Origin: Desulfobacterales bacterium
GTDB taxonomy: Bacteria > Desulfobacterota > Desulfobacteria > Desulfobacterales > UBA5852
Direction of reading: 5' to 3'
Length of the DNA stretch: 64,000 nucleotides
Assembly (NCBI GenBank): GCA_963674755.2
Contig: CAXXVS010000001.1
Coordinates: 480,001-544,000 of the forward strand
Shown here piece after piece: positions 6,781-63,732 of this stretch. Each line of letters begins with the position of its first letter. Position 1 is the stretch's first letter. The notes under the pieces were generated by a model, which saw nothing but the letters and a program-made list of their open reading frames with translations, was not told the origin of the DNA and ran no database searches. The position numbers and the translations under genes are program-made.

Positions 6781-6788
6781 AAGTAATT

Positions 6789-6877: not shown

Positions 6878-6942
6878 ATGAATCGCTTTACAAATGCAAT
6901 TTGCCTTTTCAAAATGGTTATGCTTTTCAACTTGGAGAAATC

Positions 6943-45487: not shown

Positions 45488-45603
45488 GGTGCATCTTAAC
45501 CGTTCCGATCAAACCTGTCCACAAGCGGGCGGCTTGCCGCAGTCTCGCCGCCTGGCTGCCGGCCGCTGCCATCGCCCGGCAGCGGTCGGCGTCCGAAGGG
45601 GCA

Positions 45604-46073: not shown

Positions 46074-46101
46074 AGGGGCGGTCCCGTCGGGAACCGCCCC
46101 T
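46074..46101 (-). terminator. Terminator downstream of the acyl-CoA ligase
   Basis: GGGGCGGT.CC/GG.ACCGCCCC stem followed by TTCATTTTT on the minus strand. Confidence 0.6.
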
Positions 46102-46217: not shown

Positions 46218-48011
46218 CTAGTCCTCCGGATACATGGTATCGATTTCCGCGGCGAAGCGTCGGGCGATGACCTTGCGGCGGATTTTCTGGGTCGGTGTGA
46301 CTTCCCCCTCCTCTTGGGAAAACTCCCGGGGCAGCAAGGTAAAGGCTTTGATGGTTTCGAAACCGGCCAGTTCGCCGGATTGCTGATCGATGCGCTCCCG
46401 AAAGAAGCGGATGATGTCCGGATGTTTAACCAGTTCTTCCCGGGATCGGAAAGGAATGCCCTTTTCCCGGGCCAGCGTTTCGACGACCTCGAAGGAAGGC
46501 ACGATCAAGGCGCTGACGTATTTGCGGCGGTCGCCGATGGTGGCGATCTGTTCGATATAGTGGTCTTTGCCCACCGCGGTTTCGATGTGCTGGGGCGCAA
46601 TATTTTTCCCGCCCGAGGTGATGATCAGATCCTTGATGCGATCGGTGATGACCAAAAAGCCGTCGCCGTCGATCCGGCCTACATCGCCGGTGCGAAACCA
46701 GCCGTCGTCAAAAGCCGCGGCGGTGGCCTCCGGGTTGTTGTAGTAACCCAGCATGACGTTGGGACCCTTAACCTGGACTTCGTCGTTGGGCCCGATGCGG
46801 ACCCGGCAGCCCGGGACCGGCCGGCCGACCGTACCGAATTTGAAGTGCGGGGGGGTGTTGTAGCTGATCATGGGGGCAGTTTCCGTCAGACCGTAGCCCT
46901 GACAGACCAGCAGGCCCACATCCAGAAAGAAATCTTCGATCTCCTTGGCCAGGGGCGCACCTCCGGCCGAGAAGAAATTTTTATCGCCGCCCACGATGGC
47001 GCGGATCTTGCGCAGCACCAGCCGGTCGGCCAGCCGGTACTTGAAGGCTAGAATGCCTCCGGGCTTTCGATCGGCGCGCCGGGCATCCGCCCGCTGCCGA
47101 CCGATGGCAATCGCCCAGCTAAACAGATGCCGGCGCAGTGGGGGCGCCTTCTCAAGGCGGTCCATGATGGCGGCATGGACTTTTTCATAAAGGCGCGGCA
47201 CGCTGACCATGACGGTCGGTTGGACCTCGCCTAACGCCTGGAGGACCTCGCGGGGGTTTCTAATATAGTGGTTCTGGGCGCCCTGGTGGAAAACGAGATA
47301 GGACCAGCTGCGCTCATAGACATGGCTGAGGGGCAGAAAGCATAGGGAACGGTCCTCCGGGCGCACCTGGAAATGGGCATTCACGGCATCGATCTGGTGG
47401 AAGAAGCTCCCGTGGCTGAGCATCACCCCCTTGGGGTCGCCCGTGGTGCCGGAGGTATAGATGATGCTGGCCAGATGTCGGGACGTGTCGCAGGCCGGCC
47501 GTTCGGCGGGCAGGGTTTCATCCCGGGATGAGGGCGATGACGCCAGCAGGTCGCTGAAGGTTTGGGTGCGGTCCCCGTCTGCCGAAGGGGTGTCCGCTGC
47601 GTCGAAGCGGATGATATGGTCCAGCGGACCGTGGCGGTCGGCGAAAGAAGTTATTTTGGCGTACTGGGTTCCATCGCCCACAAAAAGGACCTTTATGCCG
47701 GCGTCGCGTACGATATATTCGGCCTGGCCGGCCGTATTGGTGGCATAAATCGGCACGGTAACAGCATCCACCGTCAGGATCCCGAAATCGGCGATGGCCC
47801 ATTCCGCGCAGTTCTGGGAAAAGATGCCCACCCGGTCCCCGGCCCTGACGCCCATGGCGGTGAGGGCCGCTGCGATGCGCCGGATCCGCTGGCCGAGTTC
47901 CCCATAGGTGATGGCCTGCCAGGCACCATTCGATTTATAGCGCATGGCCACCCGGTCGGCATGGCGGCGGCAGCTTTGGGCGATCATATCGGCGAGATGG
48001 CGCTGTTCCAT
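46218..48011 (-). CDS. Long-chain fatty acid-CoA ligase (FadD15/AMP-dependent family)
   Basis: YTSGTTGDPKGVMLSH, QGYGLTE, GWFRTGD.G, DRIKDLIITSGGKN. Confidence 0.93.
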   Translation of the reverse strand: MEQRHLADMIAQSCRRHADRVAMRYKSNGAWQAITYGELGQRIRRIAAALTAMGVRAGDRVGIFSQNCAEWAIADFGILTVDAVTVPIYATNTAGQAEYIVRDAGIKVLFVGDGTQYAKITSFADRHGPLDHIIRFDAADTPSADGDRTQTFSDLLASSPSSRDETLPAERPACDTSRHLASIIYTSGTTGDPKGVMLSHGSFFHQIDAVNAHFQVRPEDRSLCFLPLSHVYERSWSYLVFHQGAQNHYIRNPREVLQALGEVQPTVMVSVPRLYEKVHAAIMDRLEKAPPLRRHLFSWAIAIGRQRADARRADRKPGGILAFKYRLADRLVLRKIRAIVGGDKNFFSAGGAPLAKEIEDFFLDVGLLVCQGYGLTETAPMISYNTPPHFKFGTVGRPVPGCRVRIGPNDEVQVKGPNVMLGYYNNPEATAAAFDDGWFRTGDVGRIDGDGFLVITDRIKDLIITSGGKNIAPQHIETAVGKDHYIEQIATIGDRRKYVSALIVPSFEVVETLAREKGIPFRSREELVKHPDIIRFFRERIDQQSGELAGFETIKAFTLLPREFSQEEGEVTPTQKIRRKVIARRFAAEIDTMYPED

Positions 48012-48168
48012 GGCCAGTGTCCCCCTGTCGGTGAAAGCTTTTGTAAAGCGTGTCTGTCTTGCAGCCAAAGCCATACCACAGGCCGGGCGGCAGTCCAACA
48101 TCAATTTAAGTGAATACTATACGGTATGGCGGGCCGTCCGATAGACGGATGAAGGCGGCGTGCCGCGG

Positions 48169-48930
48169 TCAGGACACCATGGCGAAGGCGTAACCGGGAA
48201 AAAGCAGATGGGTGGCGAGGGAAAGGGAGGGAACGGGACACCCATCGTGGAAAATGGTGTCGTCCAGGATTTCCACCCGTTTGAGGCTTTCGTGGAACCC
48301 CAGACCGATATACTTGAGGTAGGCTTCCTTGGCGGTCCAAGACCGAAAGAGGGTGGCATCGTCCCGGGATTCGAGGGCTTGGACCTCCCGGGCGCTGAAA
48401 GCGGTGCGCAGGAGCGTTGACCGGTTCTCCGGTCGAATCTGTTCCAGATCCACCCCCAGGAGGCAGGCGGGCGCGAGCCCCATCCCGGCCACGGCAAAGT
48501 TCCCGGAGTGTGAAATGGAAAGACACAGGGCGGGGTCATCGCTGAAATAGGGGGCGCCTTTTTGCCGGTAGGCCACCCGGGTGTGGTCGAGGGGGGGGCG
48601 ATGTGGCCGGAAGTGTGCCGCCAGTTGCTTGGCCGCATAGCGCCCGGCGATCCATTCCACCTGTTTTTTGAGGGCTTTGAAACCATTCAGGAGGATCAAT
48701 TCATCCGACCCCAGGAAACACTCATGGAAATCCTGCGGTACAAAAACGCGCGGCGGCGCCGTGCGAAAGGCGCTTCCGACGGCAACCTTCAAAACGTTGT
48801 GCAATAAAGCGGGGATCGATACGAAGGCCAGGCGGTAACCCGGGCCGGGTCGTCGAAAACTGAGTACGGCGTCAGGTTCCGGCCCTTGGCTAAGGGGGGG
48901 GATGGGTGCGGTCATATGGGTATTCGACAT
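48169..48930 (-). CDS. 4'-phosphopantetheinyl transferase (Sfp-type)
   Basis: AGRYAAK, G.P, SISHS, GVDLE, WTAKEAYLK motifs. Confidence 0.9.
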   Translation of the reverse strand: MSNTHMTAPIPPLSQGPEPDAVLSFRRPGPGYRLAFVSIPALLHNVLKVAVGSAFRTAPPRVFVPQDFHECFLGSDELILLNGFKALKKQVEWIAGRYAAKQLAAHFRPHRPPLDHTRVAYRQKGAPYFSDDPALCLSISHSGNFAVAGMGLAPACLLGVDLEQIRPENRSTLLRTAFSAREVQALESRDDATLFRSWTAKEAYLKYIGLGFHESLKRVEILDDTIFHDGCPVPSLSLATHLLFPGYAFAMVS

Positions 48931-48984
48931 GACCGACGACCGGCCGAGACACATGCTCCGACCGGCCGTCGGCCTTCTATCCTT

Positions 48985-51900
48985 TTATGAGGCGCGCCGG
49001 GCGCTGCCGGTTTGCAGGGCATGCAATATCTGATCTTCCCCGGCCAGCCGGTCCACCTGGACCATCTGGAAGTCGTCGATGGCCATGTGCAGGCGGCCCG
49101 CTTCATCCACCAGACGAAGCTGGTAGGTATTGGTTTCCTCGCCCTGGTCGGTCTTTTCGGTGATGCACAGATAGGGCCTGCCCTTGGCGAGGGGCCGGTA
49201 GAAGCGCATGCGGCCGATGGCGTATGGCAGAACGATGATATTGGTGGTCATGACCTCGAGCATGCCGCCGGTCTGGAACATGGCATCCACCACGGCCACA
49301 TCGGTCAGAAAATCCGGCTGGGGGCAATCCGCAAAGAAAGGCTTCGTGCTGCGATTGACGATGCGGGAGATCAGCCGTTGGGGTTCGAAAGAGACAATGT
49401 CCTCCACCGTCCGGAAAAGGCCGTCCATGAACAGGCGCGACGGGTGGTAGAGCAGTTCCTGGATGTCACCGGCATAGTCCACGGGCCGAAACGGCGGCAG
49501 CGTGACCTGTTCGGAGGGCAGCGGCGTCGGTCCGAACCGGTAGGCGCCCTGGTAGTGCAGGGTGGGTTCGCCCATGGCGATGCCTTTGGGGTTGCGGAAC
49601 TGGGAACGGATGCGGCAGTCGAAGACCTCGTCATCCTTCTCTGATCGAACGGCTTCCACCAGGATTTCCTTGGGGCGTCCCTTGAGGATCTTAATGCCGT
49701 AGGGGATTTTGAAATCCCGCACTTCCTGTAGGGCGGCCTGCGGCGGGACCAGGGTGGCGGCCGCCTCGGCCATGGCTTCAATGCCGGTGGCGCCTAGGAA
49801 AATCGGGATGTCCTCCCGGCTGTGATCCAGCAGGAAAAGGTCCCGCTGGAGATCCAGAATGCGGCGGTAGATCCGGCTGTCCGCCGTTTGTTCCACAAGG
49901 CGATCGAGGAAGGGCGCCTGGGGGCCGGCCGGGGCAGCATCCTCGGGCGCTAAAAGACCGTCGGTGTCAAAGGCGCGGTCGATGCCGGAGAACACCACTT
50001 CGGAAGTGTTTGTGTCCCCCAGTTCTTGCATGAAATGCGCCACACCGTCTTCCAGGGGCAGGAAGGTCAGCCCCCGCTGCTTGAGGACCTTATTGACGGT
50101 TTCGTTGGTGGCCATGCCGGCGCCCTCCCAGGCGGTCCAATCGAAAATCTTGACCATCGTGTCGGGGTGGAGCGCTTGATAGTGCTGCAGCATTTTTCCG
50201 ATGGTGTCGTTGGCGGCCGTGTAATCCACCTGCCCCTCGTTGCCCAAGCGGGCGGTGACCGACGAAAAGGCCATGAGGTAACGCAGGGGATTTCCTTCCA
50301 GGGCTTTCAGGAGATTATGCAGACCGCGAACCTTGGTGTCGAACACCCGATCAAAGGAGGCCATGGTCTTCTTGGTGATGAACTGGCTTTCTTCGATGCC
50401 CGCGGCATGCAGCACGCCGTCCATTTTCCCGGTCCTTGCCAGGACCGCGTGAACGCTCGCGGCATCGGTGACATCCACGGCATGGTAGGTCACTCCGGCC
50501 CCCGAAGCGCGCAGGGTTTCAAGGTTGCGCAGGGAGGCCCGCAGGTTGAGCGTCCGGTTGAGGGCCTGTTTGACGGCCAGCGGCTTGGCCTCCGGCATCC
50601 GGGTTTTCAGCCGGGCCATGAGGGCCGGGAGGTCCAATGCCGGGTCGGCCAGGTCGGCATCCAGGTCGTCGAGGTTGCTGCGGCCCAGGATCACCAGCTT
50701 CACTTTGACGGCGGCAGTCAGCGCTTTCAGAATTTCAAAAGTGATGCCCCGTGCGCCTCCGGTAACGAGGAAGGTATCGCCCTCGCGAACGAAGCGCTTC
50801 CCCGTGTGCGGTGCCTGGGGGGTGAGCTGCAGGACCCATTTATTGCCGTTGGCGTACCCGCATTCCACCCGCGGATCGCCGGAGAGCAGTTCATCGAGCA
50901 GCGTTGTGACAATGGTCTCCGGAGCCTGCCGGAATTCGCTTTCAGCCAAATCCACGACCTTGACCCGGGTGTCCTTAAGTTCTTTGTTGACCGTCTTCAG
51001 CATGCCGGCCAGGCCGGCCATGAGCGGATCGATGGCCGCGCTGGTTTTCCGGTACGGGAATACGGTCGAGTGCACCGTCGGTACGGCGATAAAGGTCCCC
51101 GGGCGATCGAGCTGGTCATAGAGCCCCCGGATCAGGACGAAGAAGGCTTTCAGACTGCCGGCGATCCGCTGGGGCGCCAGGCGATCGGCCGTGCCGTAGG
51201 TTTCCAGGGGGAGCAGATGGATCACGCCGTCGATGCGTTGGCCGCTATCCAGCAGATGGCCGGGCAGGGCGGAAACCTTTTGGCGATCCTGCCAGTCGCA
51301 GGGGAATTCGACACTGTCGCCTGATCCCACAAGCACGGCATGTCCGCCCCGGGCCGTAATGTGCTCCGCCATCACGGCGGCCAGCTGGCTGCCGCCGGTC
51401 GTGATCAGGACCCGTTGCCCTGTCATTTTATCCGCCGGCCTGCTCGATTCATTGGCAGCCGGCACCGCTTCGATCACCAGACGCTTGACTGCGCTGTCCA
51501 GCGGCACGGCCGCGACAGGTCCGCGAGCGGCGGGTTCGGCCGCCGCCGGCGTCTCGGTTGTGGCTTGGGCTTCAGGGGAACCAGGGAGTTGTTTAGCGAG
51601 ATAATCGCTCAATTTGGCGATGGTGTTAAGATCGCGCAGTTTGAGGTCTTCGGGGACCTCGATGCCGAAGCGCTCGGATACCTTTCCGAAGATTTCCACC
51701 TGTTTGACGGTGTCGATGCCCAGATCGGCTTCCAGGTCGAGGCCGTCTTCGAGCATGTCGGTGGTATAGCCGGTCTGCTCGGCGACGATGGCCTTGACCG
51801 TGGCCTGGACATCACCATCGGCGGATTGCATTTCGACGGCCGGGGTCTGGGGCGCTGTAGCGGCGTTGCCCACCGGTACCTTTTGGGCCAGATAATCGCC

Positions 51901-54900
51901 CAGTTTGGCGATGGTGTTGAGATCGCGCAGTTTGAGGTCTTCGGGGACCTCGAGACCGAAGCGCTCGGAGAGTTTGCCGAAGATTTCCACCTGTTTGACG
52001 GTGTCGATGCCCAGATCGGCTTCCAGGTCGAGCGCGTCTTCGAGCATGTCGGTAGTGTAGCCGGTCTGCTCGGCGACGATGGTCTTGACTGTGGCCTGGA
52101 CGTCGGTGACGGCCGGTGTTTCCGTCGCCGGGGCTTGTTGCTGGGTAGCGGCCGTGCTTTGACCGGGCATTTTTGGGGTCAGATAGTCGCCCAGTTTGGC
52201 GATGGTGTTGAGGTCGCGCAGTTTGAGGTCTTCGGGGACATCGAGGCCGAAGCGCTCGGAGAGTTTGCCGAAGATTTCCACTTGCTTGACGGTGTCGATG
52301 CCCAGATCGGCTTCCAGGTCGAGGCCGTCTTCGAGCATGTCGGTGGTGTAGCCGGTCTGCTCGGCAATGATGGCCTTGACCGCGTCCAACATATTCCCGT
52401 CAGCGGCGACTGGCGCCGGTGCCGCCGCCGGCAATTGGTTCTCGGAAAGCGGTTTGGCCTCTGCCGCAGCGACCGGTTGGGACTTGGGCGGCGTGTCGGT
52501 GACCGGCGAAATGACGGTCGGGTCGATACACAGGGTGTTGTTGATGGTCGTCAGGCGGGGCCGTTTGAGGCCACTGATCTTTTGTAGCCAGGCCTGGTAG
52601 CGCGGATTGTCGGCGGCCCGGTTCTCTTCGATACGGCGGATCATGAGAAAAGCGAAGTGGGATCCGAATCCGGCGGCATAGTGCAGACCGAACTCGAAGG
52701 GCCCCTTGGACGCGTCCCGGCTGAAACGCAGGTCCCGGAACTCCTCCGGAATGTTGCTGAGGTTGGCGATGGGCGGCACCTGGTTGTGCTGAAGGGCCTT
52801 GACCATGACGGCGTCTTCGATGGCGGCGCCCAAAGTATGCCCGGTATAGCCTTTGGTATTGGTGATGGTGATGTCGCGGTAGTGTTCCGGAAAGGTCTTC
52901 TTGAGGGAGGCCACCTCGGCCGAGGCGCTTCCGCCCCGGGCAGGGGTGAAGGTCTCGTGGGACATGAAGACCATCTTGCGGGTGTAGTCGCGGCGATCGA
53001 GATCGTGACGGTGTTCCACCCGGCGCACGAAGCCTTCCATCTCCTCGGTCAGATGGCCGAGGTCGATCTGGGTGGCGTGATAGGCGCTGTTGCCGATATA
53101 GGTGCCCAGGATTTCGGCCTGACCGTTCAAGCCCCGCTCCCGGACCTGGTCTTCGCGTTCCACGATGAGGGAAACGGCGCCGGCGCCTAAAATGGTGCCG
53201 TTGCGGTCGGCGTCAAAGGGTTTGGCGGCCTCGGCCACCACGTTTTTGATGCTGGCGGCTCCGAGGGCCAGAAAGCCGGAAGCGATCCACGGACTTTGGG
53301 TTTCCGAGGTGGAGGCCTCGCCGCCGATCACGACGACCCGGTCGCAGCGTCCGGTGCGGATCCAGTCCTCGGCCACTCCGACGGCCTGGGTGGTGGAGGC
53401 ACAGGCGCCGCTCATGAGCATGTTGGGCCCCTTGGCTTTGATCAGCTGGGCGAAGTGGGCCGATCCCAGAGGCACCACATCGAAGAGCAGGTTGCGCTCG
53501 AACTGGTAGGTGCCGTATTTCTTGCGGCGCTCCTTGATTTTGAAAAACCAGTCGGTGATCTGTTCCTTGATGTCCGCGTCCCGCACGGATTCCATCAGAT
53601 GGTAGTAGATGTTCTCCAGCTCCTTGTAGGGCCGCACGTAGAACTTGTTGTAGTAGTATTTGTTGAGTTGCTCGATCAGGGTTTCAAACCCCGGAAAGAG
53701 AGAGGTCATGATGACGCCCGTGCGCCCCTGGAGCTCCCGCGGCAGGGCATAGCCGGCCGGAATCTGCTGCCCGGTGGAGGTTTGCTTGTGCTGCAGAACC
53801 AGGGGGATATGGGCGTCTTTGAGGGCCTCGATGCCGGCGGCGATGGCCAGGGAGATCGTGATGTCGTAGTCATAGTCCACGCCGTACTCGTTTTTCAGAT
53901 TGAAATAGCCGAGTTTGCCGGCTAGCTGGATCACGTCCTGGGTGTCGGTGATCTTGAGAAAGCGGGCATTGCCGTCGGGCTGCTTGAACACCCGGGTGAT
54001 ATTCATGTCGACAATTTTCTCCTTCTCCTGGGCGGAGAGCGGCTCGATAAAATTGTTGCCGCTGAGAAGCTTGTCGAAGTTGTTGGAATTGAAGACTTTG
54101 TTGCCGGTGCCCGGCAGTCCGATGGCGGTTCCGGCCACGACGGTCTTGCCCGTATAGAAGTTGAAGCGCTCCACCTCCTTGAGGGCCTGCTCCCGCTTCT
54201 GCTTCAGAAACTCCTGGTAGAGTACGCCCCGCAGGGCCTCTTCATTCTTCTGAAGAAAGGCTTCGAAGTCCGGGGCTTCCGCCAGGGCGGGTGGGCTGAC
54301 AACCTCCTCCGGCAGGTGGTCCGGGGAGGCCTGTGACGCCGCTTCGGCGGCATCTGTTCTTGCGATCAAGCCTTCTGCTGCCAGATGTGCTTTGAATTCC
54401 GCGAACGATTTGGTTTCACCGGCCTTGGCATCCACCGACGGCCGGGCATGGTAGTCTTCGATGCGGATATTCTTCAGTAGGTTGACCAGAATGCGGCCAG
54501 CGCCGATTTCGTAAAACCGAGCGTGGCCGGACTGGCGCACCCGCTCCACCGAGCGGATGAATTCCACCGGCGAGACGATCTGGCGCACCAGCAGGGCTTT
54601 GATCTCCTCGGTCTCTTCCGGATAGGGCGCAGCCGTCACGTTGGAGATAATCCGGCTGGTGTCCACCGGCCGGAAGGTGACGTCCCGCAGGTAGGCGGCC
54701 ATGCTGTCCGCCGCGCTTTGGAAGAGCGGCGTGTGGAAGGCGCCGGAAAGGGCCAGGGCCTTGAACATGACCTTGACTTCCTTGAGGTAGCCTCCGAAGG
54801 CTTCGATGGCCTCCTGGGCGCCCGAGACGGCGGTCTGGTTGTCGCTGTTCTTGTTGGCCACATAGATGTTGCGGATGCGGGAGGCCCGGATCAGCTGGTG

Positions 54901-57900
54901 GACGCGGTCGGCATTCTTGAAGACCACCATGATGCGGCCCGGCTGAACCTCGGTGGCCGCCTTCATGAAGTCGGCCCGTTTGACGATCAGCTGCATGGCG
55001 GCTTCGAAATTCAGCAGGCCGGCGCAGTACAGGGCGGTGTATTCGCCCACGCTGTGGCCGATAAAGCGGTCCGGTGCAAAGCCCCGGGCGGCCAGATCCG
55101 TATAGATGGCCGCCGAGCTCAAAAAGACCGCCGGCTGGGTGTTTTCGGTCAGGTTCAAACGGGCATCTTTGCCGAACATGATATCCAGCAGGCTGTAGCC
55201 GCGCATCTCCTGGAAGATCCGGTTGCCCTGGTCCAGGGTGGCCCGGATGGAGCGGTTTTCATGGTAGAGATCCTGCAGCATGCCGCCATACTGGGCCCCC
55301 TGGCCGGACACAAGCGCCACCACGCCGTTAGGTTTCGTGGGGATGGCGGCTGCGGGGCGGCGTGTCACCGCCGCGGTGGCTGTTACGGCCGGTTGGACGT
55401 CCGTTTGCAGCCAGGGCGGCAGGGTGCCGACTACGGTGTGGCCGTGGTTGCCGCCCACCCCGTTGACATTGGCGGCGAAGTAGAGGGTCTGCCGATTTTC
55501 CGGCTGTCGCAGGCGGGCGTTGGGCGCGAGACATGAATCGGAGCCCACAATGGCGGTATCGGGTGCGTAGCTGAAGTTGGGCAGCAGGGTTTGGGCACGG
55601 TTCATGAGGAGCAGCTTGGCAAGGGCGACGGCCGGGTTGGCGGATTTGAAATAGCCGAACTCCGGCTTGATGTTGCCGAAATAGACCGGCCGGTCAAAGG
55701 TGCGCTCGATGGCCTGCTTCTCCATCTGATCAAGCAGGCTGTTGGCCACGCCGAAGACGTCCAGGTGATCGATCTGGCGGGTGTTGACCGGCAGGCGGCG
55801 ATAGCTGTCCCGGATGGTGTCCCGATAGACTTTTTCGGACGGGGCCAGAAGATGGTCCGGCACGGAAGAACGGAAGGCGCTGTGGAGGAACTCGCCGATC
55901 ACAGGCATGCGGTGCTTTTTGGCATGGCCGTAGGTGGTCATGACCAGCAGGGCCGCGCCTTCGCTCATAACATAGCCCTTGGCCTGCTTGTCGAAGAAAC
56001 GGCAGTCTCCGTCGGACAGCAGGCTCAGGCGTTTGAAGGCCAGCATCACGGTGGGGTAGAAATTGGCGTCCACTCCGCCGGTTAGCACGCTGTCGAACTC
56101 CCCGCTGCGCAGGCCCATGGCCGCCAGCCGGGTGGCCACGGTGGCCGACGCACAGGAGGCGTCCACCACGAAATTGGCCCCGTTACAGCCGAAGGTGTTG
56201 GCAATGCGTCCGGAAACGATGTTGGACAGCAGACCGGGGATCGTGTCCTCGTTATTTTCAGGAATGCGGTCCCGGATTTGCTCCCCCAGACGGGCGGCGA
56301 TGGCTTTTTTGGTTTTCTCCGCGGTGCCTGCCAGGCGGTTGATGATGCCTTCGATCATCCCCAGGCGGACCCGCAGGATGTTCTGCACCTGGCGCTCCCC
56401 CGGCAGGGTCCCCAGCACCACCCCCACCCGGTTGCCGTGGGCCAGCTGGGATTCCAGGGTGGCGGCGTCGATGGCCTGCCGGGCGGCATCCAGGGCGAAG
56501 AGCTGGGCCCGGTCCAGGGAACGGGCCGTGGCCGGCGGGATGCGGAATTGCACGTTGTTGAAGCGGTAGTCCTTCACCACCCCGGCTTTGACGAGGGGGA
56601 TGTGGTAGCTGGCGTCGGCCGGCTCGGCGGCATAGGCGCTGTTATGAAAGCGTTCTTCCGGGATGGTGGACAGCACCGATCGGCCTTCGGTCAGGTTGTG
56701 CCAGAAGGTATCCACGTCCGGCGATTCCGGCAGTACGACGCCCATACCGGCAAAAACGATGCGGTCGTCGTTGAAGTCGTAGTCCAGGTCGGCAAAGATG
56801 CGGCGCGGCCGGCAGGTGTGTTCGGGAGTGTGCTCGGCCACCACGCAGTGGTAGTTGATGCCGCCGAAGCCGTAGGAGCTCACGGCCGCCATGCGCGGGC
56901 GGCCGGCGTCGGCCTCCCACTCCCGGGCCTCCTCGATGATATAGAGCGGGGTGTCCCTAAGGCTGTGGGCCGGGGCCAGCGTTTCGAAGCGGCCGTTGGG
57001 GGGCAGGGTGTGATGGTTGATGGCCAGAATGGCCTTGATCATGCCGGCATAGCCGGCGCCGCCCAGCAGATGGCCGATCTGGGATTTGATGGAGCTGATG
57101 CCGATGGGGTGCTCGCTCCGGTAGATTTTCTTGAGCGTTTCGATTTCGGCCTGGTCGCCGGCGATGGTCGATGTCCCATGGGCTTCGATATACCCGATGT
57201 CGGAAACCGTCACCGGATCGCGCATGTCCGCAAAGCAGCGTTCCAGCGCCAAGGCTTGCCCGTCGGGGTTGGGGGCGGCGATGGCTTTGCCTTTGCCGTC
57301 CGAGCTGGATCCGATGCCTTTCACCACGGCATAAATCTTGTCTCCGTCCCGCAGGGCGTCTTTCAAGCGTTTGAGGACCACCACGCCGGCGCCTTCCCCC
57401 AGGACGAACCCGTCGGCCCGGGTATCGAAGGGGTAGGAACCTTTGGCCGAAAGGGCTCCCATCTTGGAAAATCCCACGAAGGATTCCGGGGCCAGGTTGG
57501 TGTTGACCCCGCCGGAAATCACCAGGTCGTATTCGCCGCTGAGCAATTCCTTGACAGCACAGTCCAAGGCGGCAAAGGAAGTCGCGCAGGCTGCGTCCAC
57601 CACATAGTTGATGCCCGTGATGCCCAAATGGTGGGCGATGCGGGAGGCTTCGATATTGAGCAACTGGCCGTGCACGGGTTCGTAGTCCATCCCGTTGGCC
57701 ATGCCCTCGCGCAGGGTCGTGAGCAGCGCTTCGCGTTCGTCTTCCGCCAGGGTGTTGAATTCCTCGATCTGCTCCAGGTGATGACGTACTTCGGGATACC
57801 AGTATTTCAGGTGCAGATCGTTGCCCAGTTCGTTGCCCAGGCAGGTGGCCACAATGACGGCCGTGGAGGCCTGGTAGGCCGCATCCAGACTCAAATCCTC

Positions 57901-60300
57901 TTGCAGATAACCGGCGTCGGCCACGGCCCGGTAGGCCGCTTCCAGAACCATTTGCTGACTGCGGGAAAGGCGGGTTGCCTTGTCGGCGGTGTAGCCGTAG
58001 CGGTCGTGGTCGAAATGGAAATCCCGCACCACGCCGGCGATCTTAGTGTAGCTCTTGTCGGTGGCCTTGCGATTCTCGTCGAAATAGAGGGCCGGATCCA
58101 GACGGTCAGCCGGCATTTCACCGATGGCGTAGGCTTTGGCAATGACATTTTCCCAGAGTTGTTCCGGGCTGTCGGCCCCCGGGTAAATGCAGCCCATGCC
58201 GATTACGGCGACGTCGTCTTCAATGGCATGGCGTGGGCTGGTGAGAACTTCAAGCGCGTTGAGCTGCCGGAAGAGATCTTCCTTGCGGTGGAAGAAGGTC
58301 TTGTGGATATCTTCGATGGTGGTGCTGCAAGGGTTGAAGGCCAACCCATCCCCCACCATGAAGTTGCCCTTTTCGAATTGTTCCTTTTCATCGTAATGGA
58401 GAAAGCAGACGTCGCCGCTTGCTTTGTCAAACTTCGGGCAAAAGGCCTTGGCGCCGATCAGCAGGGATCCGATATTGTCTTTTTCAAAGGCTTTCTTGCG
58501 CTCCTCCAGGGAGAGCCCCTCCCGTATGCGCTGGTGCTCGTTTTCGATCATGCGCTGGGAGAAGGGGGTCGCCACCGTGCGGGAGGCCAACCCCACCGTG
58601 GTCCCCATGACGATGGTTTCATCCCGCTCGCAGACCACGTCCTGGTAGATTTTTTTGATGGCGCCGGTTTCGATGATTTCGCAGGAGAAAAGATAGGCCG
58701 TACCCACCTGAATGCCGATCTTGACGCCCCGGCCGGCCAAGCGGGCGGTCATGCCGGAAATGAAGTGGGGCGCCCGGTGGGTGCCGATCCCACCGGCGAA
58801 GATCATGGTTTTGTCCCCCAGCTGGCCGTCCGGCAGCGCGCTCATTTTCTCCATGGCGAGCTCCCACAGCACCAGGCTGCTCAAGGTGCCCACGTGGCCG
58901 CCGGCCTCGGCGCCTTCGAAGATAAACCGCCGGCAGCCTTTCTGCAGGGCGTTTTCGAGCATCATCAGGCTGGGGGTGTGGAGATAGGTCTTGGTTCCGG
59001 CCGCTTCCAGATCCTTCACCTGGGAGGGAATCCCCCCGGCGAAAAGGGCAAAGGGCGCGTTGTATTTCTTTACGGAATCCAGGTGGTGGCTGATGGTGGG
59101 GTTGAAGGCTTCGATGCCGATCATGCCGGCCCCGAAGCGCTCCACCTTGGCTTGGCCGGCGGCCAGCATGTCGTCGGCCAGATTGGCCGGCAGGTTGCCC
59201 AGGGCGAAAAAGGGCAGGCCGCCGGCGGCGAAGACCGCGGCGGCGAAATCGGCATTGTCGCTCACATTGGCCATGGGGCCCTGGATGATGGGGTAGCGCG
59301 TGCCGTGCTCCCGGGCCAGGGCGCTCTCCGCCCGCATGGGGTCATGGGCGTCGACGGCCTGCAGCTGTTCGCCGATATGGGTGAAGAGGCCCGTTATCAT
59401 GGCGGCCAGGGTGGCGCTGTGGCGGGCGAAGTGCCGTGCAAAGACCGCGTCCTGACCCAGGTAGAAGAGACTTTGCAGGGGCGTGTCGCTGGGCGTGCCC
59501 AGATCGGCCATGTTTGCTTCGATGTCGTGGTAGAGCAGGGCATCGGCATCTTCCCCGCCGGCCAGCTGGATTTCCCGATCCCGCAGGGTCTTGACGATGC
59601 GGGTGCCCAGCTTGGCGAAGAAATGGTAGCGGACCTGGAGGGATTGACCGATGATGGTGGCATCCTTTTCCTCCAACTGGCCGATGACATCCTTGTATAC
59701 CGGGGCCAGGGGGGCTTCTTGGGCCAGGAAGAGCTGGTTGTCCAGGACGATGCCTTCCGCGCCCATGGCGAACAGGCCGGCGGCCGTATGCCAGCCCACA
59801 CCGCCGTGGACGAATACGGGCCACTCGCCGTTGTTGAGGTACCACTGCAGCAGGACAAAGGACGAATAGCGGGAAACCTTGCCCGGTCCTTCATGGCCTT
59901 TGACGATCAGGCCGTGGGGGTCGATGCGCGTCAGCGAATCCTTCAGGTTGATGTCGGTGGTTTCGATGAAGAACCGATAATCGCGGTTGTCGAACCGGAA
60001 TCCATCCAGATCGGCGGGGGTGCGATAGGTGAAAACGATCAGGTCCAGGTTGGCGATGCTGTTGGTTTCCAGATAGTCACGCAGGGCCTGGTTATCGACG
60101 GCCAGACGCAGGCCGAAGATCAGCTCGTTTTGGGAGAGGGTTTCGACCATTTGGATGATATCGGTATTGGTGAAAAACTCCGTGTCCAGCATCGGCAGGG
60201 CGCCGGCCGTATGGAGGCTTCGGAAATAAGTGAGGTCGAATACCTTCGATGGATGATAAACCAACAGGGGCAAACGGGCACTGATACGTCTCGCGATCAT
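48985..60300 (-). CDS. Single-polypeptide PUFA-synthase-like iterative type I PKS/FAS (ER'-ER-KS-KS*-MAT-KS-ACPx3-KR-DH), 3771 aa
   Basis: IIQGPM..EG.EAGGH (FabK/PfaD-like ER); DAAC..HGT..GH (KS1); DASC without His (KS2); GQG, GHSVG, AFH (MAT); SGAC..HETFT..GH (KS3); LEADLGIDT x3; TGGARG..Y..AN (KR); LDH..D..FQ (DH). Confidence 0.93.
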   Translation of the reverse strand: MIARRISARLPLLVYHPSKVFDLTYFRSLHTAGALPMLDTEFFTNTDIIQMVETLSQNELIFGLRLAVDNQALRDYLETNSIANLDLIVFTYRTPADLDGFRFDNRDYRFFIETTDINLKDSLTRIDPHGLIVKGHEGPGKVSRYSSFVLLQWYLNNGEWPVFVHGGVGWHTAAGLFAMGAEGIVLDNQLFLAQEAPLAPVYKDVIGQLEEKDATIIGQSLQVRYHFFAKLGTRIVKTLRDREIQLAGGEDADALLYHDIEANMADLGTPSDTPLQSLFYLGQDAVFARHFARHSATLAAMITGLFTHIGEQLQAVDAHDPMRAESALAREHGTRYPIIQGPMANVSDNADFAAAVFAAGGLPFFALGNLPANLADDMLAAGQAKVERFGAGMIGIEAFNPTISHHLDSVKKYNAPFALFAGGIPSQVKDLEAAGTKTYLHTPSLMMLENALQKGCRRFIFEGAEAGGHVGTLSSLVLWELAMEKMSALPDGQLGDKTMIFAGGIGTHRAPHFISGMTARLAGRGVKIGIQVGTAYLFSCEIIETGAIKKIYQDVVCERDETIVMGTTVGLASRTVATPFSQRMIENEHQRIREGLSLEERKKAFEKDNIGSLLIGAKAFCPKFDKASGDVCFLHYDEKEQFEKGNFMVGDGLAFNPCSTTIEDIHKTFFHRKEDLFRQLNALEVLTSPRHAIEDDVAVIGMGCIYPGADSPEQLWENVIAKAYAIGEMPADRLDPALYFDENRKATDKSYTKIAGVVRDFHFDHDRYGYTADKATRLSRSQQMVLEAAYRAVADAGYLQEDLSLDAAYQASTAVIVATCLGNELGNDLHLKYWYPEVRHHLEQIEEFNTLAEDEREALLTTLREGMANGMDYEPVHGQLLNIEASRIAHHLGITGINYVVDAACATSFAALDCAVKELLSGEYDLVISGGVNTNLAPESFVGFSKMGALSAKGSYPFDTRADGFVLGEGAGVVVLKRLKDALRDGDKIYAVVKGIGSSSDGKGKAIAAPNPDGQALALERCFADMRDPVTVSDIGYIEAHGTSTIAGDQAEIETLKKIYRSEHPIGISSIKSQIGHLLGGAGYAGMIKAILAINHHTLPPNGRFETLAPAHSLRDTPLYIIEEAREWEADAGRPRMAAVSSYGFGGINYHCVVAEHTPEHTCRPRRIFADLDYDFNDDRIVFAGMGVVLPESPDVDTFWHNLTEGRSVLSTIPEERFHNSAYAAEPADASYHIPLVKAGVVKDYRFNNVQFRIPPATARSLDRAQLFALDAARQAIDAATLESQLAHGNRVGVVLGTLPGERQVQNILRVRLGMIEGIINRLAGTAEKTKKAIAARLGEQIRDRIPENNEDTIPGLLSNIVSGRIANTFGCNGANFVVDASCASATVATRLAAMGLRSGEFDSVLTGGVDANFYPTVMLAFKRLSLLSDGDCRFFDKQAKGYVMSEGAALLVMTTYGHAKKHRMPVIGEFLHSAFRSSVPDHLLAPSEKVYRDTIRDSYRRLPVNTRQIDHLDVFGVANSLLDQMEKQAIERTFDRPVYFGNIKPEFGYFKSANPAVALAKLLLMNRAQTLLPNFSYAPDTAIVGSDSCLAPNARLRQPENRQTLYFAANVNGVGGNHGHTVVGTLPPWLQTDVQPAVTATAAVTRRPAAAIPTKPNGVVALVSGQGAQYGGMLQDLYHENRSIRATLDQGNRIFQEMRGYSLLDIMFGKDARLNLTENTQPAVFLSSAAIYTDLAARGFAPDRFIGHSVGEYTALYCAGLLNFEAAMQLIVKRADFMKAATEVQPGRIMVVFKNADRVHQLIRASRIRNIYVANKNSDNQTAVSGAQEAIEAFGGYLKEVKVMFKALALSGAFHTPLFQSAADSMAAYLRDVTFRPVDTSRIISNVTAAPYPEETEEIKALLVRQIVSPVEFIRSVERVRQSGHARFYEIGAGRILVNLLKNIRIEDYHARPSVDAKAGETKSFAEFKAHLAAEGLIARTDAAEAASQASPDHLPEEVVSPPALAEAPDFEAFLQKNEEALRGVLYQEFLKQKREQALKEVERFNFYTGKTVVAGTAIGLPGTGNKVFNSNNFDKLLSGNNFIEPLSAQEKEKIVDMNITRVFKQPDGNARFLKITDTQDVIQLAGKLGYFNLKNEYGVDYDYDITISLAIAAGIEALKDAHIPLVLQHKQTSTGQQIPAGYALPRELQGRTGVIMTSLFPGFETLIEQLNKYYYNKFYVRPYKELENIYYHLMESVRDADIKEQITDWFFKIKERRKKYGTYQFERNLLFDVVPLGSAHFAQLIKAKGPNMLMSGACASTTQAVGVAEDWIRTGRCDRVVVIGGEASTSETQSPWIASGFLALGAASIKNVVAEAAKPFDADRNGTILGAGAVSLIVEREDQVRERGLNGQAEILGTYIGNSAYHATQIDLGHLTEEMEGFVRRVEHRHDLDRRDYTRKMVFMSHETFTPARGGSASAEVASLKKTFPEHYRDITITNTKGYTGHTLGAAIEDAVMVKALQHNQVPPIANLSNIPEEFRDLRFSRDASKGPFEFGLHYAAGFGSHFAFLMIRRIEENRAADNPRYQAWLQKISGLKRPRLTTINNTLCIDPTVISPVTDTPPKSQPVAAAEAKPLSENQLPAAAPAPVAADGNMLDAVKAIIAEQTGYTTDMLEDGLDLEADLGIDTVKQVEIFGKLSERFGLDVPEDLKLRDLNTIAKLGDYLTPKMPGQSTAATQQQAPATETPAVTDVQATVKTIVAEQTGYTTDMLEDALDLEADLGIDTVKQVEIFGKLSERFGLEVPEDLKLRDLNTIAKLGDYLAQKVPVGNAATAPQTPAVEMQSADGDVQATVKAIVAEQTGYTTDMLEDGLDLEADLGIDTVKQVEIFGKVSERFGIEVPEDLKLRDLNTIAKLSDYLAKQLPGSPEAQATTETPAAAEPAARGPVAAVPLDSAVKRLVIEAVPAANESSRPADKMTGQRVLITTGGSQLAAVMAEHITARGGHAVLVGSGDSVEFPCDWQDRQKVSALPGHLLDSGQRIDGVIHLLPLETYGTADRLAPQRIAGSLKAFFVLIRGLYDQLDRPGTFIAVPTVHSTVFPYRKTSAAIDPLMAGLAGMLKTVNKELKDTRVKVVDLAESEFRQAPETIVTTLLDELLSGDPRVECGYANGNKWVLQLTPQAPHTGKRFVREGDTFLVTGGARGITFEILKALTAAVKVKLVILGRSNLDDLDADLADPALDLPALMARLKTRMPEAKPLAVKQALNRTLNLRASLRNLETLRASGAGVTYHAVDVTDAASVHAVLARTGKMDGVLHAAGIEESQFITKKTMASFDRVFDTKVRGLHNLLKALEGNPLRYLMAFSSVTARLGNEGQVDYTAANDTIGKMLQHYQALHPDTMVKIFDWTAWEGAGMATNETVNKVLKQRGLTFLPLEDGVAHFMQELGDTNTSEVVFSGIDRAFDTDGLLAPEDAAPAGPQAPFLDRLVEQTADSRIYRRILDLQRDLFLLDHSREDIPIFLGATGIEAMAEAAATLVPPQAALQEVRDFKIPYGIKILKGRPKEILVEAVRSEKDDEVFDCRIRSQFRNPKGIAMGEPTLHYQGAYRFGPTPLPSEQVTLPPFRPVDYAGDIQELLYHPSRLFMDGLFRTVEDIVSFEPQRLISRIVNRSTKPFFADCPQPDFLTDVAVVDAMFQTGGMLEVMTTNIIVLPYAIGRMRFYRPLAKGRPYLCITEKTDQGEETNTYQLRLVDEAGRLHMAIDDFQMVQVDRLAGEDQILHALQTGSARRAS
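51600..52385 (-). repeat. Three near-identical tandem ACP-coding repeats (291-bp period)
   Basis: GATCTGGGCATCGACACCGTCAA repeated, with Thr codons at 52291-52293, 52000-52002 and 51709-51711. Confidence 0.92.
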
Positions 60301-60631: not shown

Positions 60632-61597
60632 CTATTTCAGAGGCATGTCGAATTTCAGATGGATTGCGAAATCGCCAAAATAAAGAGGGGTTACGGCCAC
60701 CGTCGCCCCGGTGCGTTCCAGGGTTTGCCGTTTGCCGCCCACCTCCAGGGTGGCCCTGATTTTCAGGTGGCGTCCCAGAAGCATGCGGGCGGCCTTGTCG
60801 GTGGCTTTGATGTAGAACGACAGTCCTGTATTGGATAGGTCGGCCATGTCGCCGCGGAAGGGTTTGCCCAGCAACGCCTTAGCCGTGTCCATCATCTGGG
60901 CCACGATGAGACCCTCGACTTTGATACGGCGGCTCTGGCGTCGCTCGAGTCCTTTGGCGGTGACGAGTTTGCCCACATCCTTCGCCTGGCAGAATTCTCG
61001 TAGTTTGGTTTCCAGGGCGGGCAGGGATTCTTTCCATTCGCCCAAATGCGTATTGTCGATCACCTGAAGCTCCGCATGAGACTGAACCGCCAGGGATGTG
61101 GTGCAGGTGGTGGTGGCGAAAAAAGTGTCCTGGCCGGCGACATCACCCGGTTCCAGGGTGGTGATGAGGCTGTCTTGGCCTTCGCGGGAAAAGTAGAGTT
61201 TCAGTTGGCCCTGCTGAATGAAAAAAAGGCGGGTATTGATATCGCCCTGCCGGTAGAGCACTTCCCCGGCATCCAGCGCCAGCGGCTGTTGGGCGAAATA
61301 GAGGGCGTTGGTCTCCTCTTCGGAGAGCCGGTCGTAAAGCGCCCTGAACCGCTCAATGTGATTCGGGTCGATGGCCCCGCTTTTCTCCGCTTCGATGATT
61401 TCGGCCGCTTTGATGATTTCGGTAAGGGCCATCTCGTCCACGGCCATCAGGCGTTCGCGCATGGCTTCGGCTTTGGGGAAATTCTTGGCCCGGGCATGCT
61501 GTGCGACCAGGTCATAGAAGCATTTGACGGCGGCCTGGGTGTCGCCGTCGCGGGCATATTGCTCGGCCTGTTCTTCCAGTCGGGCGATATCGTCCAT
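60632..61597 (-). CDS. Cyclic-nucleotide-binding + PilZ domain protein
   Basis: GEVLYRQGD...LFFI..G.L (cNMP); ERRQSRR and DLSNTG (PilZ RxxxR, DxSxxG); helical N-terminus. Confidence 0.85.
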   Translation of the reverse strand: MDDIARLEEQAEQYARDGDTQAAVKCFYDLVAQHARAKNFPKAEAMRERLMAVDEMALTEIIKAAEIIEAEKSGAIDPNHIERFRALYDRLSEEETNALYFAQQPLALDAGEVLYRQGDINTRLFFIQQGQLKLYFSREGQDSLITTLEPGDVAGQDTFFATTTCTTSLAVQSHAELQVIDNTHLGEWKESLPALETKLREFCQAKDVGKLVTAKGLERRQSRRIKVEGLIVAQMMDTAKALLGKPFRGDMADLSNTGLSFYIKATDKAARMLLGRHLKIRATLEVGGKRQTLERTGATVAVTPLYFGDFAIHLKFDMPLK

Positions 61598-61895
61598 GCT
61601 ACGCGTCTCCAACGCCGGAGCGGTTGGGAAGCCGAGCGGTGCGCCGGGGTAGAGCTAGTCTAGGTCGCATTGGATTCCGGCGTTGATTCCGATGGACCGG
61701 ACCACCGGCCGCCCGCTCTGCCAGCCTGTTTTGTCGCTGATCTTACAACAAATTCACTATAGACGATAAAATCCGGTTGATCAACCGGCTGTGCCGCAGG
61801 AGGCGTTGTCCGCCCAACTTTGCCCTTGCAAAAACCAGGCATTGCCACTATGAAACAGACTTTTAAGAATTACTCAAAACTAAAGTGGACAAGCC

Positions 61896-62933
61896 ATGAA
61901 CTCATCGGTCATTCGTGCTCGGCAAAATCTTTCCGTCGATATCGAGGCCTTGACCCGCCTGATTCTCGACCAGCAGCGTGCGAGCGGTGAAATTCCCTGG
62001 TGCGACGGGCAGAAAACCGATCCCTGGGATCATGTGGAATCCGCGATCGGATTGACCATCGGCGGCCATTACGAAGCCGCCCGGCGGGCCTACGAGTGGA
62101 TGCGCCGGACCCAGCTGGATGACGGCAGCTGGTATGCCGCCTATCGTGACGGCCGGCCGGAGGACCGCACCCGGGACGCCAATCTTTCCACCTATATCGC
62201 GGTGGGGATCTATCATTATCTTCTCGTCACCGGTGACCGGGCGTTTGCGGAAGCCCTCTGGCCGACGGTGCGTGACGCCATTGAATTCGCCCTGAAGCTG
62301 CAAACCCCGGAAGGCCCGATCCACTGGGCCATCAGCCCCGAGGGCCGGGTGGACGCCATGGCCTTGCGGACCGGGTCGAGTTCGGTGTTCATGAGCCTCA
62401 AATGCGCGCTCAAACTGGCCGAGCTCCTGGGCCGCCCACGGCCCCGCTGGGTTGACGCCCTCGGTCGCCTCCAGGACGCGTTGTGCCGCAAGCCCCATCT
62501 TTTCAACATGACCAAATCGCGTTTTTCCATGGACTGGTTCTACCCGGTTCTCTGCGGTGCCCTGCAGGGTGACGATGCCCGCCGGCGCATCGACAAATAC
62601 TGGAAGAAGTTCGTCGTGGAAGGCCAGGGGGTGCGCTGTGTCTACGATGAGCCCTGGATTACCGTCGCCGAAACCTGCGAACTCGTCCTGTCTTTGGCGG
62701 CCATGGGCAACGAGGCGCTGGCCCGGATCGTCTTCGGCTGGATCAGCACCAAGCGCTTCGAAGACGATACCTACTGGTGCGGCTTTACCTTTCCGGATAT
62801 GGTGATCTGGCCGGAAGACAAGATTAGCTGGACCAATGCCGTCGTCCTCATGGCGCTGGATGCCCTCTATCACCTGACCCCCGCCAGCCAGTTGTTCCAT
62901 CACGCCAGCTGGGATGACCGCGCTCCGGTCTGA
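61896..62933 (+). CDS. alpha/alpha-barrel 'prenyltransferase-like' / GH15-like protein
   Basis: G.IPW..G...DPWDHVE, Q..DGSW, RFSMDWFYPVL, PWITVAETCEL motifs. Confidence 0.75.
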   Translation: MNSSVIRARQNLSVDIEALTRLILDQQRASGEIPWCDGQKTDPWDHVESAIGLTIGGHYEAARRAYEWMRRTQLDDGSWYAAYRDGRPEDRTRDANLSTYIAVGIYHYLLVTGDRAFAEALWPTVRDAIEFALKLQTPEGPIHWAISPEGRVDAMALRTGSSSVFMSLKCALKLAELLGRPRPRWVDALGRLQDALCRKPHLFNMTKSRFSMDWFYPVLCGALQGDDARRRIDKYWKKFVVEGQGVRCVYDEPWITVAETCELVLSLAAMGNEALARIVFGWISTKRFEDDTYWCGFTFPDMVIWPEDKISWTNAVVLMALDALYHLTPASQLFHHASWDDRAPV

Positions 62934-63012
62934 CCGGAGCGCAGCATCCCGGGGCCATTCCCAGACGCTCAAGGGGCGATGTGCGGCGGTCCCTTGCGCG
63001 GGAGGATCCGGA

Positions 63013-63732
63013 TTGCGACGCGACCACCGTCCCTATAGCGTCAAGAAATTATTCCTGAACTGGCAGCGCTTTTATGTACGGCGTTTCCTGCGGCCCCAAT
63101 TCGATGCCCTGGGCCGCGGCCACCATTTCATGCGCCCCTGGTATGTGGAGCTGTTCGGGGCGCCCATCGCGTTGGGGCGCTATGCCACCGTGATTGCCTG
63201 CGCGGATGCCCGGGTGCGCCTCTGTGTCTGGCCCCGGCAGGACGGCGAAGGCCTGATCCGGATCGGAGATTACAGCCTGATCTGCCCGGGCGTGCGCATC
63301 AGTTCCGCCTGTCGCATCACGGTGGGGCACAGCGTCATGCTGGCCAACCGGGTCTACCTGACCGATTCGGACTGGCATGATGTCTATGACCGTACGGCCG
63401 CCGGGCAGGGCGCGCCCATCGCGATCGGCGACAACGTCTGGATCGGGGACAGCGCCATCGTCTGCAAGGGGGTTGCCATCGGTGACAACAGTATTGTCGG
63501 GGCCGGAGCGGTGGTGGTGGATGACGTGCCGCCCAATGTGGTCGCGGCCGGCAATCCAGCCCGGGTGGTCAAGATGCTCGATCCGCAGCGTCCGCTCAAG
63601 GCCCGCCGCGATTGGTTTGCCGATCCGGCCCGTTTGTCACGGGATTTCCGGATCTGGGACCGCGCCCTGCTGGAAGGCAATACCCTGGCCCACTGGCTGC
63701 GCTATCTGGTGCGGCCCAGCCAGCAGGATTAG
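63013..63732 (+). CDS. Hexapeptide-repeat (LbH) acyltransferase
   Basis: IGDNVWIG....V.KGV.IGDNSIVGAGAVV..DVP.N.VAAGNPA; TTG start after GGAGG. Confidence 0.88.
   Translation: MRRDHRPYSVKKLFLNWQRFYVRRFLRPQFDALGRGHHFMRPWYVELFGAPIALGRYATVIACADARVRLCVWPRQDGEGLIRIGDYSLICPGVRISSACRITVGHSVMLANRVYLTDSDWHDVYDRTAAGQGAPIAIGDNVWIGDSAIVCKGVAIGDNSIVGAGAVVVDDVPPNVVAAGNPARVVKMLDPQRPLKARRDWFADPARLSRDFRIWDRALLEGNTLAHWLRYLVRPSQQD

Follow-up and report, generated by a model that had tools for sequence, protein, structure and literature searches.

What does a bacterium do with a giant fatty-acid-making enzyme whose acyl carrier protein (ACP) domains carry no serine at the site of phosphopantetheine attachment? 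This question is raised by a single open reading frame (ORF) encoding a synthase of 3771 amino acids (positions 48985 to 60300, minus strand) in a 64,000-nucleotide stretch of DNA, here called the window, from a Desulfobacterales bacterium (assembly GCA_963674755.2, contig CAXXVS010000001.1, positions 480,001 to 544,000). Phosphopantetheinylation is taught as a serine-specific modification, and in Escherichia coli the exchange of Ser for Thr serves as a non-functional control. All three ACPs of this synthase have Thr at that site, and a dedicated transferase gene lies next to it. In this study, we read the enzyme as a type I fatty acid synthase (FAS) of bacteria whose phosphopantetheine is likely linked to Thr. 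In this genome it is accessory, and some relatives probably use it as their primary synthase; we place the probability of this reading at about 0.58.

Threonine at the carrier site

All three ACPs read LGIDTVK, with Thr2670, Thr2767 and Thr2864 each encoded by an ACC codon (at 52291, 52000 and 51709). An earlier note on this DNA had recognized the ACPs and had overlooked the Thr at the phosphopantetheine site. The domains match the PP-binding profile PF00550 in three stretches (83.6 bits), 43 solved ACP-containing sequences were matched, and the Thr aligns with the modified Ser in the three solved ACP sequences displayed. Across the family, 676 ACP domains were found in 238 of 261 proteins, and the site was occupied by Thr in 650 of them, by Ser in 15 and by other residues in 5, with 6 gaps and no Ala. 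The ACP profile used for this count did not presuppose the residue at the site; its seed consisted mostly of Thr-ACPs, yet Ser-ACPs were recovered. In the Thr-ACPs, Ser reached at most 27% at every other column. The flanking LGID and K are nearly invariant, and the site itself tolerates only Thr or Ser.

The same picture was obtained at the codon level. In the homolog loci L005-L056 together with the window, 130 of 130 matches to a motif pattern limited to Ser or Thr had Thr, encoded by ACG (61), ACC (54), ACA (9) and ACT (6). The arrays contain 1-8 ACP copies across the family, and Thr and Ser ACPs are mixed inside single arrays of two proteins (P0045 and P0146). Other carriers of the same genomes, including AcpP, PfaA and those of the biotin cluster and of modular polyketide synthases (PKS), have Ser. 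Taken alone, phosphopantetheinylation of these ACPs on Thr is probable. No relevant report of Thr phosphopantetheinylation was found in the literature searched, most subscription papers being outside its scope, and a Thr carrier residue in this listed but uncharacterised family was not found reported there either.

A cognate phosphopantetheinyl transferase

The gene directly downstream of the synthase encodes a phosphopantetheinyl transferase (PPTase) with residues that we take to be of the Sfp type, and it is the only Sfp-type PPTase found in this genome. Of the 52 loci L005-L056, 22 have a PPTase gene directly behind the synthase, and many of the others end early. In 36 homologs the PPTase is fused to the C-terminus of the synthase, and 34 of these have Thr and no Ser ACP. 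Among 151 order-level genomes, this PPTase clade and the third ketosynthase (KS) domain of the synthase, KS3, were present in the same 28, linked or unlinked, and the clade was present in none of the other 123; related genomes are not independent, and 5 of the 28 PPTases were themselves rows of the search profile. All 15 further synthase carriers also match the PPTase profile, 14 of them at E <1e-55. These patterns speak indirectly for arming of the Thr.

Domain architecture of the synthase

The domain order is ER'-ER-KS1-KS2-AT-KS3-ACP3-KR-DH (ER, enoyl reductase; AT, acyltransferase; KR, ketoreductase; DH, dehydratase), and the features are listed in Table 1. Pfam content comprises an NMO/FabK-type ER, three KS, AT, three PP-binding domains, KR and PS-DH, and the Pfam scan detected no thioesterase domain. 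To examine conservation we used a search with the KS3 region, which returned 826 proteins among 2002 scored candidates; counts for closest homologs rest on the best 120 of these 826, and those of named origin come mostly from Desulfobacterales. Exactly the same complete order of domains is present in 100 of these 120, and the remaining 20 are shorter pieces of it, which argues that the layout is neither due to chance nor an assembly artefact. Reads from two sequencing runs span the gene without listed insertions or deletions. One RNA run contributed a small share, in short contigs only, and does not demonstrate expression of the synthase.

Table 1. Features of the synthase locus (window coordinates).
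Feature	Position	Strand	Remarks	Basis
Synthase gene	48985..60300	-	single chain, 3771 aa	ORF, Pfam, homolog architecture
ER'	59365..60288	-	FabK/NMO-type barrel without catalytic His; approximate boundaries	alignment
ER	58246..59337	-	FabK/NMO-type enoyl reductase, EAGGH (H469)	Pfam, alignment
KS1	56821..58227	-	type I PKS/Pfa-like, C905/H1041/H1077	alignment, tree
KS2	55426..56769	-	Cys-only (C1383)	alignment, tree
AT	54376..55323	-	S1750/R1775/H1856, GAFH motif	Pfam, alignment
KS3	52621..54168	-	FabF-fold, ~110-aa insertion, C2300/H2448/H2488	predicted structure, alignment
ACP1	52171..52395	-	Thr2670 (codon 52291-52293)	motif, alignment with solved ACPs
ACP2	51880..52104	-	Thr2767 (codon 52000-52002)	motif
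ACP3	51589..51813	-	Thr2864 (codon 51709-51711)	motif
KR	49966..51498	-	structural half plus catalytic KR (Y3360)	Pfam, alignment
DH	49021..49923	-	PKS-type, H3493/D3672; not FabA-type	Pfam, alignment
PPTase	48169..48954	-	Sfp-type, intact catalytic motifs; true start possibly a later ATG	Pfam, alignment
Ligase-like gene	46218..48104	-	long-chain acyl-CoA ligase-like	Pfam, locus comparison
Hairpin	46074..46101	-	terminator-like, 3' of ligase	pattern match only

The general layout given in the earlier note, namely a single-chain enzyme with three KS domains and no thioesterase, a degenerate and an intact FabK/PfaD-like ER at the N-terminus and a malonyl-type AT, agrees with these data. At the position of the His in the EAGGH motif, which we take to be the FabK-type catalytic His, ER' has Arg or Lys in 93 of 111 homologs and His in none, and ER keeps it in 113 of 115; ER' probably has a structural role, as one half of an ER pseudo-dimer. 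The AT was found by Pfam, and its GAFH motif presumably indicates the malonyl type. The two DH residues are invariant in all 105 homologs compared. Taken together, the catalytic residues of the KS, AT, KR, DH and ER domains are all conserved, and a complete fatty acid cycle is contained within one chain.

Three different ketosynthase domains

The phylogenetic tree of KS domains (FastTree, 279 columns, 68 domains, midpoint-rooted) included 20 of the 261 family proteins and 12 locus proteins and no Pks13 or OleA sequence. The three KS domains took three separate positions in it, in agreement with the earlier claim that they differ from each other. KS1 falls with the type I/Pfa KSs, and the full Cys-His-His triad previously assigned to it is in place and invariant in 117 of 117 homologs. 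KS2 makes up a separate clade that excludes two chain length factors (CLFs) of the PfaC type, which have no Cys there. Its Cys (codon 56152-56154) and the loss of both His, replaced by F1516 and Y1550, were also correctly described before. This Cys is present in 110 of 117 aligned homolog domains and is replaced by Asp or Asn in the other 7 (genome G017 among them), and the whole of KS2 is missing from most distant homologs. Because KS2 sits right after KS1, like a KS-CLF pair, it is likely a CLF-like partner of KS1 in sequence terms, and because Asp or Asn can replace the Cys, this residue may be usable but not essential. The proposal that KS2 is an acyl-holding transacylase thus stands as a possibility, not as an obligatory function.

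KS3 contains C2300 (codon 53401-53403), H2448 (in HET instead of HGT), K2483 and H2488, and each of the last three is retained in 119 of 120 aligned homolog domains. The earlier note was right about the Cys and the atypical His motif and wrong in hinting at a His deficiency, as both His are present. The predicted structure of KS3 (mean predicted local distance difference test score, pLDDT, 90) shows a private insertion of ~110 aa, and its best fold match is FabF (Z 47.1, root mean square deviation 2.4 A, 399 residues, 21-26% identity). Lower values were obtained for Pks13 (38.0), the KS of mycobacterial and fungal type I FAS (34.2 and 32.4), FabY (32.6) and thiolase/KAS III types (<=26). In the tree, KS3 is a clade of its own (support 1.0) on a long private branch among discrete FabF-like enzymes, its exact sister being weakly supported. 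It has no BLAST similarity to the OleA-like protein of the same genome (best E 0.96); the synthase scores 462.3 for the Pks13 family NF040607 (cut-off 2100) and does not have the ACP-KS-AT-ACP-TE layout (TE, thioesterase). From sequence and model, KS3 looks like an elongating-type enzyme and not one of the OleA or Pks13 kind. The comparison with elongating KSs, which the earlier note had proposed as a check, thus goes part of the way towards refuting its idea of a special KS3; but the long branch and the insertion set KS3 apart.

Housekeeping fatty acid synthesis and the likely product

The occurrence of fabF and fabZ was surveyed in all 28 carriers of the synthase and in 32 of the 123 non-carriers. 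Both genes were missing above cut-off in 7 of the 28 carriers versus none of the 32 non-carriers, and both were above cut-off in 20 of the 28; acpP was retained in all 60 genomes tested. More clear-cut than these seven are Desulfoluna AA1, MSL71 and a related metagenome-assembled genome, for which completeness is not stated: they have no FabF above cut-off and no Pfa-type FabA dehydratase. In AA1 and MSL71, discrete KS, ACP and DH are found solely in the biotin gene cluster, and every synthase ACP read has Thr (the AA1 array is interrupted by an assembly gap). This biotin cluster (L084:4370-10560 and L085:5614-12925) contains a mini type II set, consisting of a FabA/Z-like piece, a FabG-like protein, a Ser-ACP and a KS; such a private set is expected if the housekeeping type II FAS (FAS II) is gone. 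The labels bioF/bioD, oadG and oleA-D are names that we presume to fit the Pfam hits. A search for FabV matched none of the control genomes and therefore carries no information on this enzyme. Retention of FabH, FabD, FabG and AcpP without FabF and FabZ would fit a role in which chains delivered by the megasynthase are turned into 3-hydroxyacyl-AcpP for lipid A.

Fatty acids of Desulfoluna isolates have been published. On lactate they comprise C16:0 (22-28%), C16:1w7c (19-22%), C18:1w7 (20-23%) and C14:0 (7-12%) (PMC7031245 Table S2), and isolates grown on lactate plus sulfate also contain C18:1w9 and 3-OH-C14 (bioRxiv 10.1101/630186; PMC7031245 Table S2). Polyunsaturated fatty acids (PUFA) are absent from this table, which lists fatty acids only.

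Comparison with known systems

The synthase belongs to the 'Type S' secondary lipid synthases, which were listed in 2011 and are uncharacterised. The Type S protein of Desulfobacterium (Desulforapulum) autotrophicum HRM2 (P0071, 3859 aa) is 60% identical over KS3 and has the same Pfam set and three Thr-ACPs, and its KS1, KS2 and KS3 each group with their counterparts in the synthase studied here (P0001). Since HRM2 has neither fabA nor fabZ, it was suggested that Type S might be the core FAS in D. autotrophicum (Shulse & Allen 2011, PMC3098273). It was known there from a single genome and uncharacterised, and the word 'threonine' is absent from the main text (PMC3098273). No information on Type S was obtained from a further article (PMC8174602). 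In contrast to the 2011 description, the family seen here is wide and has a cognate PPTase, and the present genome keeps FAS II.

The related Type R synthases were described as KS-MAT-'CLF'-ACP-KR (MAT, malonyl-acyltransferase) plus PPTase (PMC3098273). By position, they match our distant homologs, sharing the core KS1-AT-KS3-ACP-KR-DH, the downstream or fused PPTase and the Thr-ACPs, although they are mostly without KS2 and often without the ER pair. Judged in the same way, the 'CLF' of Type R appears to be a KS3 with the full triad.

In canonical Pfa systems the activities are split over PfaA-D and the CLF has no Cys. The synthase resembles Pfa PUFA synthases (PfaA-E) in its tandem ACPs, flavin-type (FabK/PfaD) ER, KS-KS' pair, PKS-type DH and absence of a thioesterase; it differs in being one chain, in having a third KS, which is FabF-like, ahead of the ACPs, in lacking a FabA-type DH, in a KS2 that keeps its Cys, and in carriers with Thr instead of Ser. 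ER heterodimers have been described in thraustochytrid Pfa (PMC13311796). With FabF (KAS II) of FAS II, KS3 shares the fold and the Cys-His-His plus Lys residues, whereas its place within a megasynthase, low identity, insertion and HET motif distinguish it. Mycobacterial and fungal type I FAS also run the fatty acid cycle on a single chain, with a flavin-type ER and a self-priming PPTase (as in the 36 fused homologs), but their domain order is different, and the synthase has no malonyl/palmitoyl transferase (MPT) domain.

A separate Pfa-type cluster is located elsewhere in this genome (G000:C2, about 832000-858000; L002 and L003), with a PfaD-like protein, a PfaA-like protein with three Ser-ACPs and a PfaBC fusion, followed by oleA/B/C/D-like genes. 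It contains no PPTase of its own.

Proposed mechanism and its weighing

Domain order, active-site residues, the carrier Thr and its co-occurrence with the PPTase are observed; the steps that follow are inferred. In the scheme that we propose, the cognate PPTase would arm the ACP Thr with phosphopantetheine and the AT would load malonyl. KS3, beside the ACPs, and the KS1-KS2 pair would split elongation, probably by chain length or saturation, a division similar to the two KS centres of PUFA synthases. KR, DH and ER, with ER' as dead dimer partner, would reduce each round to give C14-C18 chains. Because the synthase has no thioesterase, chains might be released by transfer to host AcpP or CoA, perhaps via the KS2 Cys where present, or alternatively by a separate thioesterase together with the neighbouring ligase. 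For PfaB, chain transfer to a soluble ACP has been proposed (PMC12895367). Membrane acyl chains of Desulfoluna and certain other lineages would come mainly from the synthase. A broader claim is more tentative, and we hold it a little short of even odds: that a widespread cross-phylum family of megasynthases relies on Thr-linked phosphopantetheine from a PPTase clade of its own, a carrier chemistry separate from Ser-specific priming, and that in several sulfate reducers and spirochaetes the enzyme replaces type II FAS as one more kind of bacterial type I FAS, and makes saturated and monounsaturated chains without FabA, FabF and FabZ.

Several observations weigh against the type I FAS reading. 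The S36T variant of E. coli ACP cannot take the phosphopantetheine arm and is non-functional (PMC3340395, PMC13343975). The 2.1-Mb single-contig complete genome G024 has Ser in both synthase ACPs (L066:8427-19322), has no discrete FabF/FabZ and has one PPTase only, of the cognate clade, serving all its carriers; comparison of PPTases found no residue tracking Thr versus Ser substrates, and the overlap between search profile and counted PPTases was mentioned above. The present genome keeps FabH, FabF, FabZ, AcpP and AcpS, and the synthase is therefore accessory here. The seven carriers without fabF and fabZ belong to only three families, all with Pfa-type genes that could supply chains. About half of the Desulfoluna fatty acids are monounsaturated, and the synthase has no FabA-type domain to explain cis double bonds; Desulfoluna also has modular PKS and nonribosomal peptide synthetase (NRPS) genes, three FabK-like genes and a lone PfaD-like gene. 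In the proteome of Desulfoluna DBB, the likely ortholog DBB_24570 (4175 aa, 448 kDa; orthology assigned by size and gene order) was represented by 2 peptides (0.77% coverage), and FabH, AcpP, FabD and FabG were well detected (PMC7031245 supplement 2). A 448-kDa protein may be under-sampled in such proteomics.

Among the other explanations, the one that survives best, although it is unlikely, is that KS1 elongates and KS3 or KS2 joins two acyl chains head to head to give dialkyl ketones or a special neutral lipid, the carriers possibly still being Thr-linked. Head-to-head condensation by KS3 had been suggested in the earlier note. It would be consistent with a synthase without thioesterase, with two intact, phylogenetically distinct KS domains retained family-wide, with the private insertion and HET motif of KS3, with the complete FAS II that coexists with the synthase in most carriers, and with the restriction of the Desulfoluna lipid table to fatty acids (PMC7031245 Table S2). 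But KS3, with its full elongating-type triad, resembles FabF most closely, both by sequence and by fold, and lies far from enzymes of the OleA/thiolase type, the score for the Pks13 family falls well below the cut-off, this genome has the separate Pfa and OleA-type cluster for such products, and Desulfoluna requires some fatty acid source; condensation by KS3 is thus unsupported. Related enzymes of anaerobic Firmicutes (Moorella, Clostridium thermocellum) reportedly make such products, in a study that we did not find or verify and that, if real, may touch the product or the Thr. Nothing relevant on a three-KS or dialkyl-ketone-forming PUFA-synthase-like enzyme was found in the literature searched (PMC13291983 included), most subscription papers being outside its scope.

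Less probable still is the idea that the Thr-ACPs are unmodified docking or structural domains, that the chain is borne in trans by the Ser-AcpP of the host, and that the PPTase arms AcpP or Pfa carriers. The dead S36T variant (PMC3340395, PMC13343975), the retention of AcpP in all 60 genomes tested, the abundance of AcpP, FabD, FabH and FabG in the DBB proteome, and the location here of the sole Sfp-type PPTase of a genome whose Pfa cluster has none would all fit it. It is opposed by the distribution of the PPTase, which follows the synthase exactly and forms fusions with Thr-only arrays in 34 proteins, by a site restricted to Thr or Ser between nearly invariant flanks, and by the retention of arrays of 1-8 copies and of an in-chain malonyl AT. 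That the enzyme is a fused PUFA synthase with polyunsaturated products is very improbable, as the earlier note had also held: PfaA is the best NCBIfam match and the tandem ACPs, flavin-type ER and KS-KS' pair are shared, but the TIGR02813 score (948.5 bits) is below the PfaA cut-off (1010.1), no PF07977 hit for a FabA-type dehydratase lies in the gene (such hits occur in the separate, true Pfa cluster), KS2 does not group with PfaC CLFs, and the Desulfoluna table lists no PUFA (PMC7031245 Table S2).

If the Thr is indeed modified, a natural family of Thr carriers served by a PPTase of its own would extend what is known of phosphopantetheinylation chemistry, annotation rules that call Ser-less ACPs inactive would be wrong for these ACPs, and a possible orthogonal carrier/PPTase pair would be at hand for synthase engineering. 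Separately, the type I FAS reading offers a testable answer to the origin of membrane fatty acids without FabF/FabZ in Desulfoluna, Desulfobacterium and relatives, a question left open in 2011. The Thr-ACP synthase family occurs in many sulfate-reducing bacteria.

Family and distribution

A profile search of representatives identified 469 proteins at E <=1e-30, and the family details were taken from the best 150 of these. Distant homologs share the core KS1-AT-KS3-ACP-KR-DH, with the ER pair, KS2 and a C-terminal PPTase being optional. Homolog loci were obtained from Desulfobacterota, spirochaetes, Elusimicrobia, Chloroflexi, Bacteroidales, Rhodothermales and Actinobacteria. The synthase of G024 is a natural Ser counterpart to the Thr-ACP enzymes.

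Upstream of Type R homologs an acyl-CoA dehydrogenase gene was observed (L048:2713-4377, also L005, L050 and L053). In these four loci it lies just upstream of ER-less homologs, which fits full chain reduction, and the dehydrogenase may substitute for the absent enoyl reductase. In the Nonomuraea locus L005, genes for a fused carboxylase, a PPTase, a wax-ester-synthase-like and a glycerol-3-phosphate-dehydrogenase-like protein are apparently present (labels assigned by eye).

Neighbouring genes

The ligase-like gene was considered as a core part of the system and rejected; because no more than 5 related loci have it next to the synthase, we regard it as accessory. The hairpin downstream of it likely marks the end of a three-gene unit (synthase, PPTase and ligase), terminator-like hairpins numbering 3 versus 3.6 expected in shuffles. 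Downstream of the ligase, an extracytoplasmic function (ECF) sigma factor and a 122-aa protein (window 44870-45972, minus strand) are kept in 4 close loci. On the other side, a cyclic nucleotide monophosphate (cNMP)-binding protein upstream of the synthase and a divergent gene pair (window 60632-63732) are kept in only 4-5 close loci; the pair encodes a 345-aa protein without Pfam hit (weak TIGR01577) and a hexapeptide acetyltransferase. A sigma-54 activator gene, a candidate regulator, flanks the synthase in other genomes (L049:1906-3429, L072:4980-6458 and L066:6780-8225), upstream and divergent in Desulfoluna and G033 and downstream in G024. Far from the synthase, window positions 2001-8000 have a GC content of 0.39-0.41 versus about 0.6 elsewhere, and are possibly acquired DNA.

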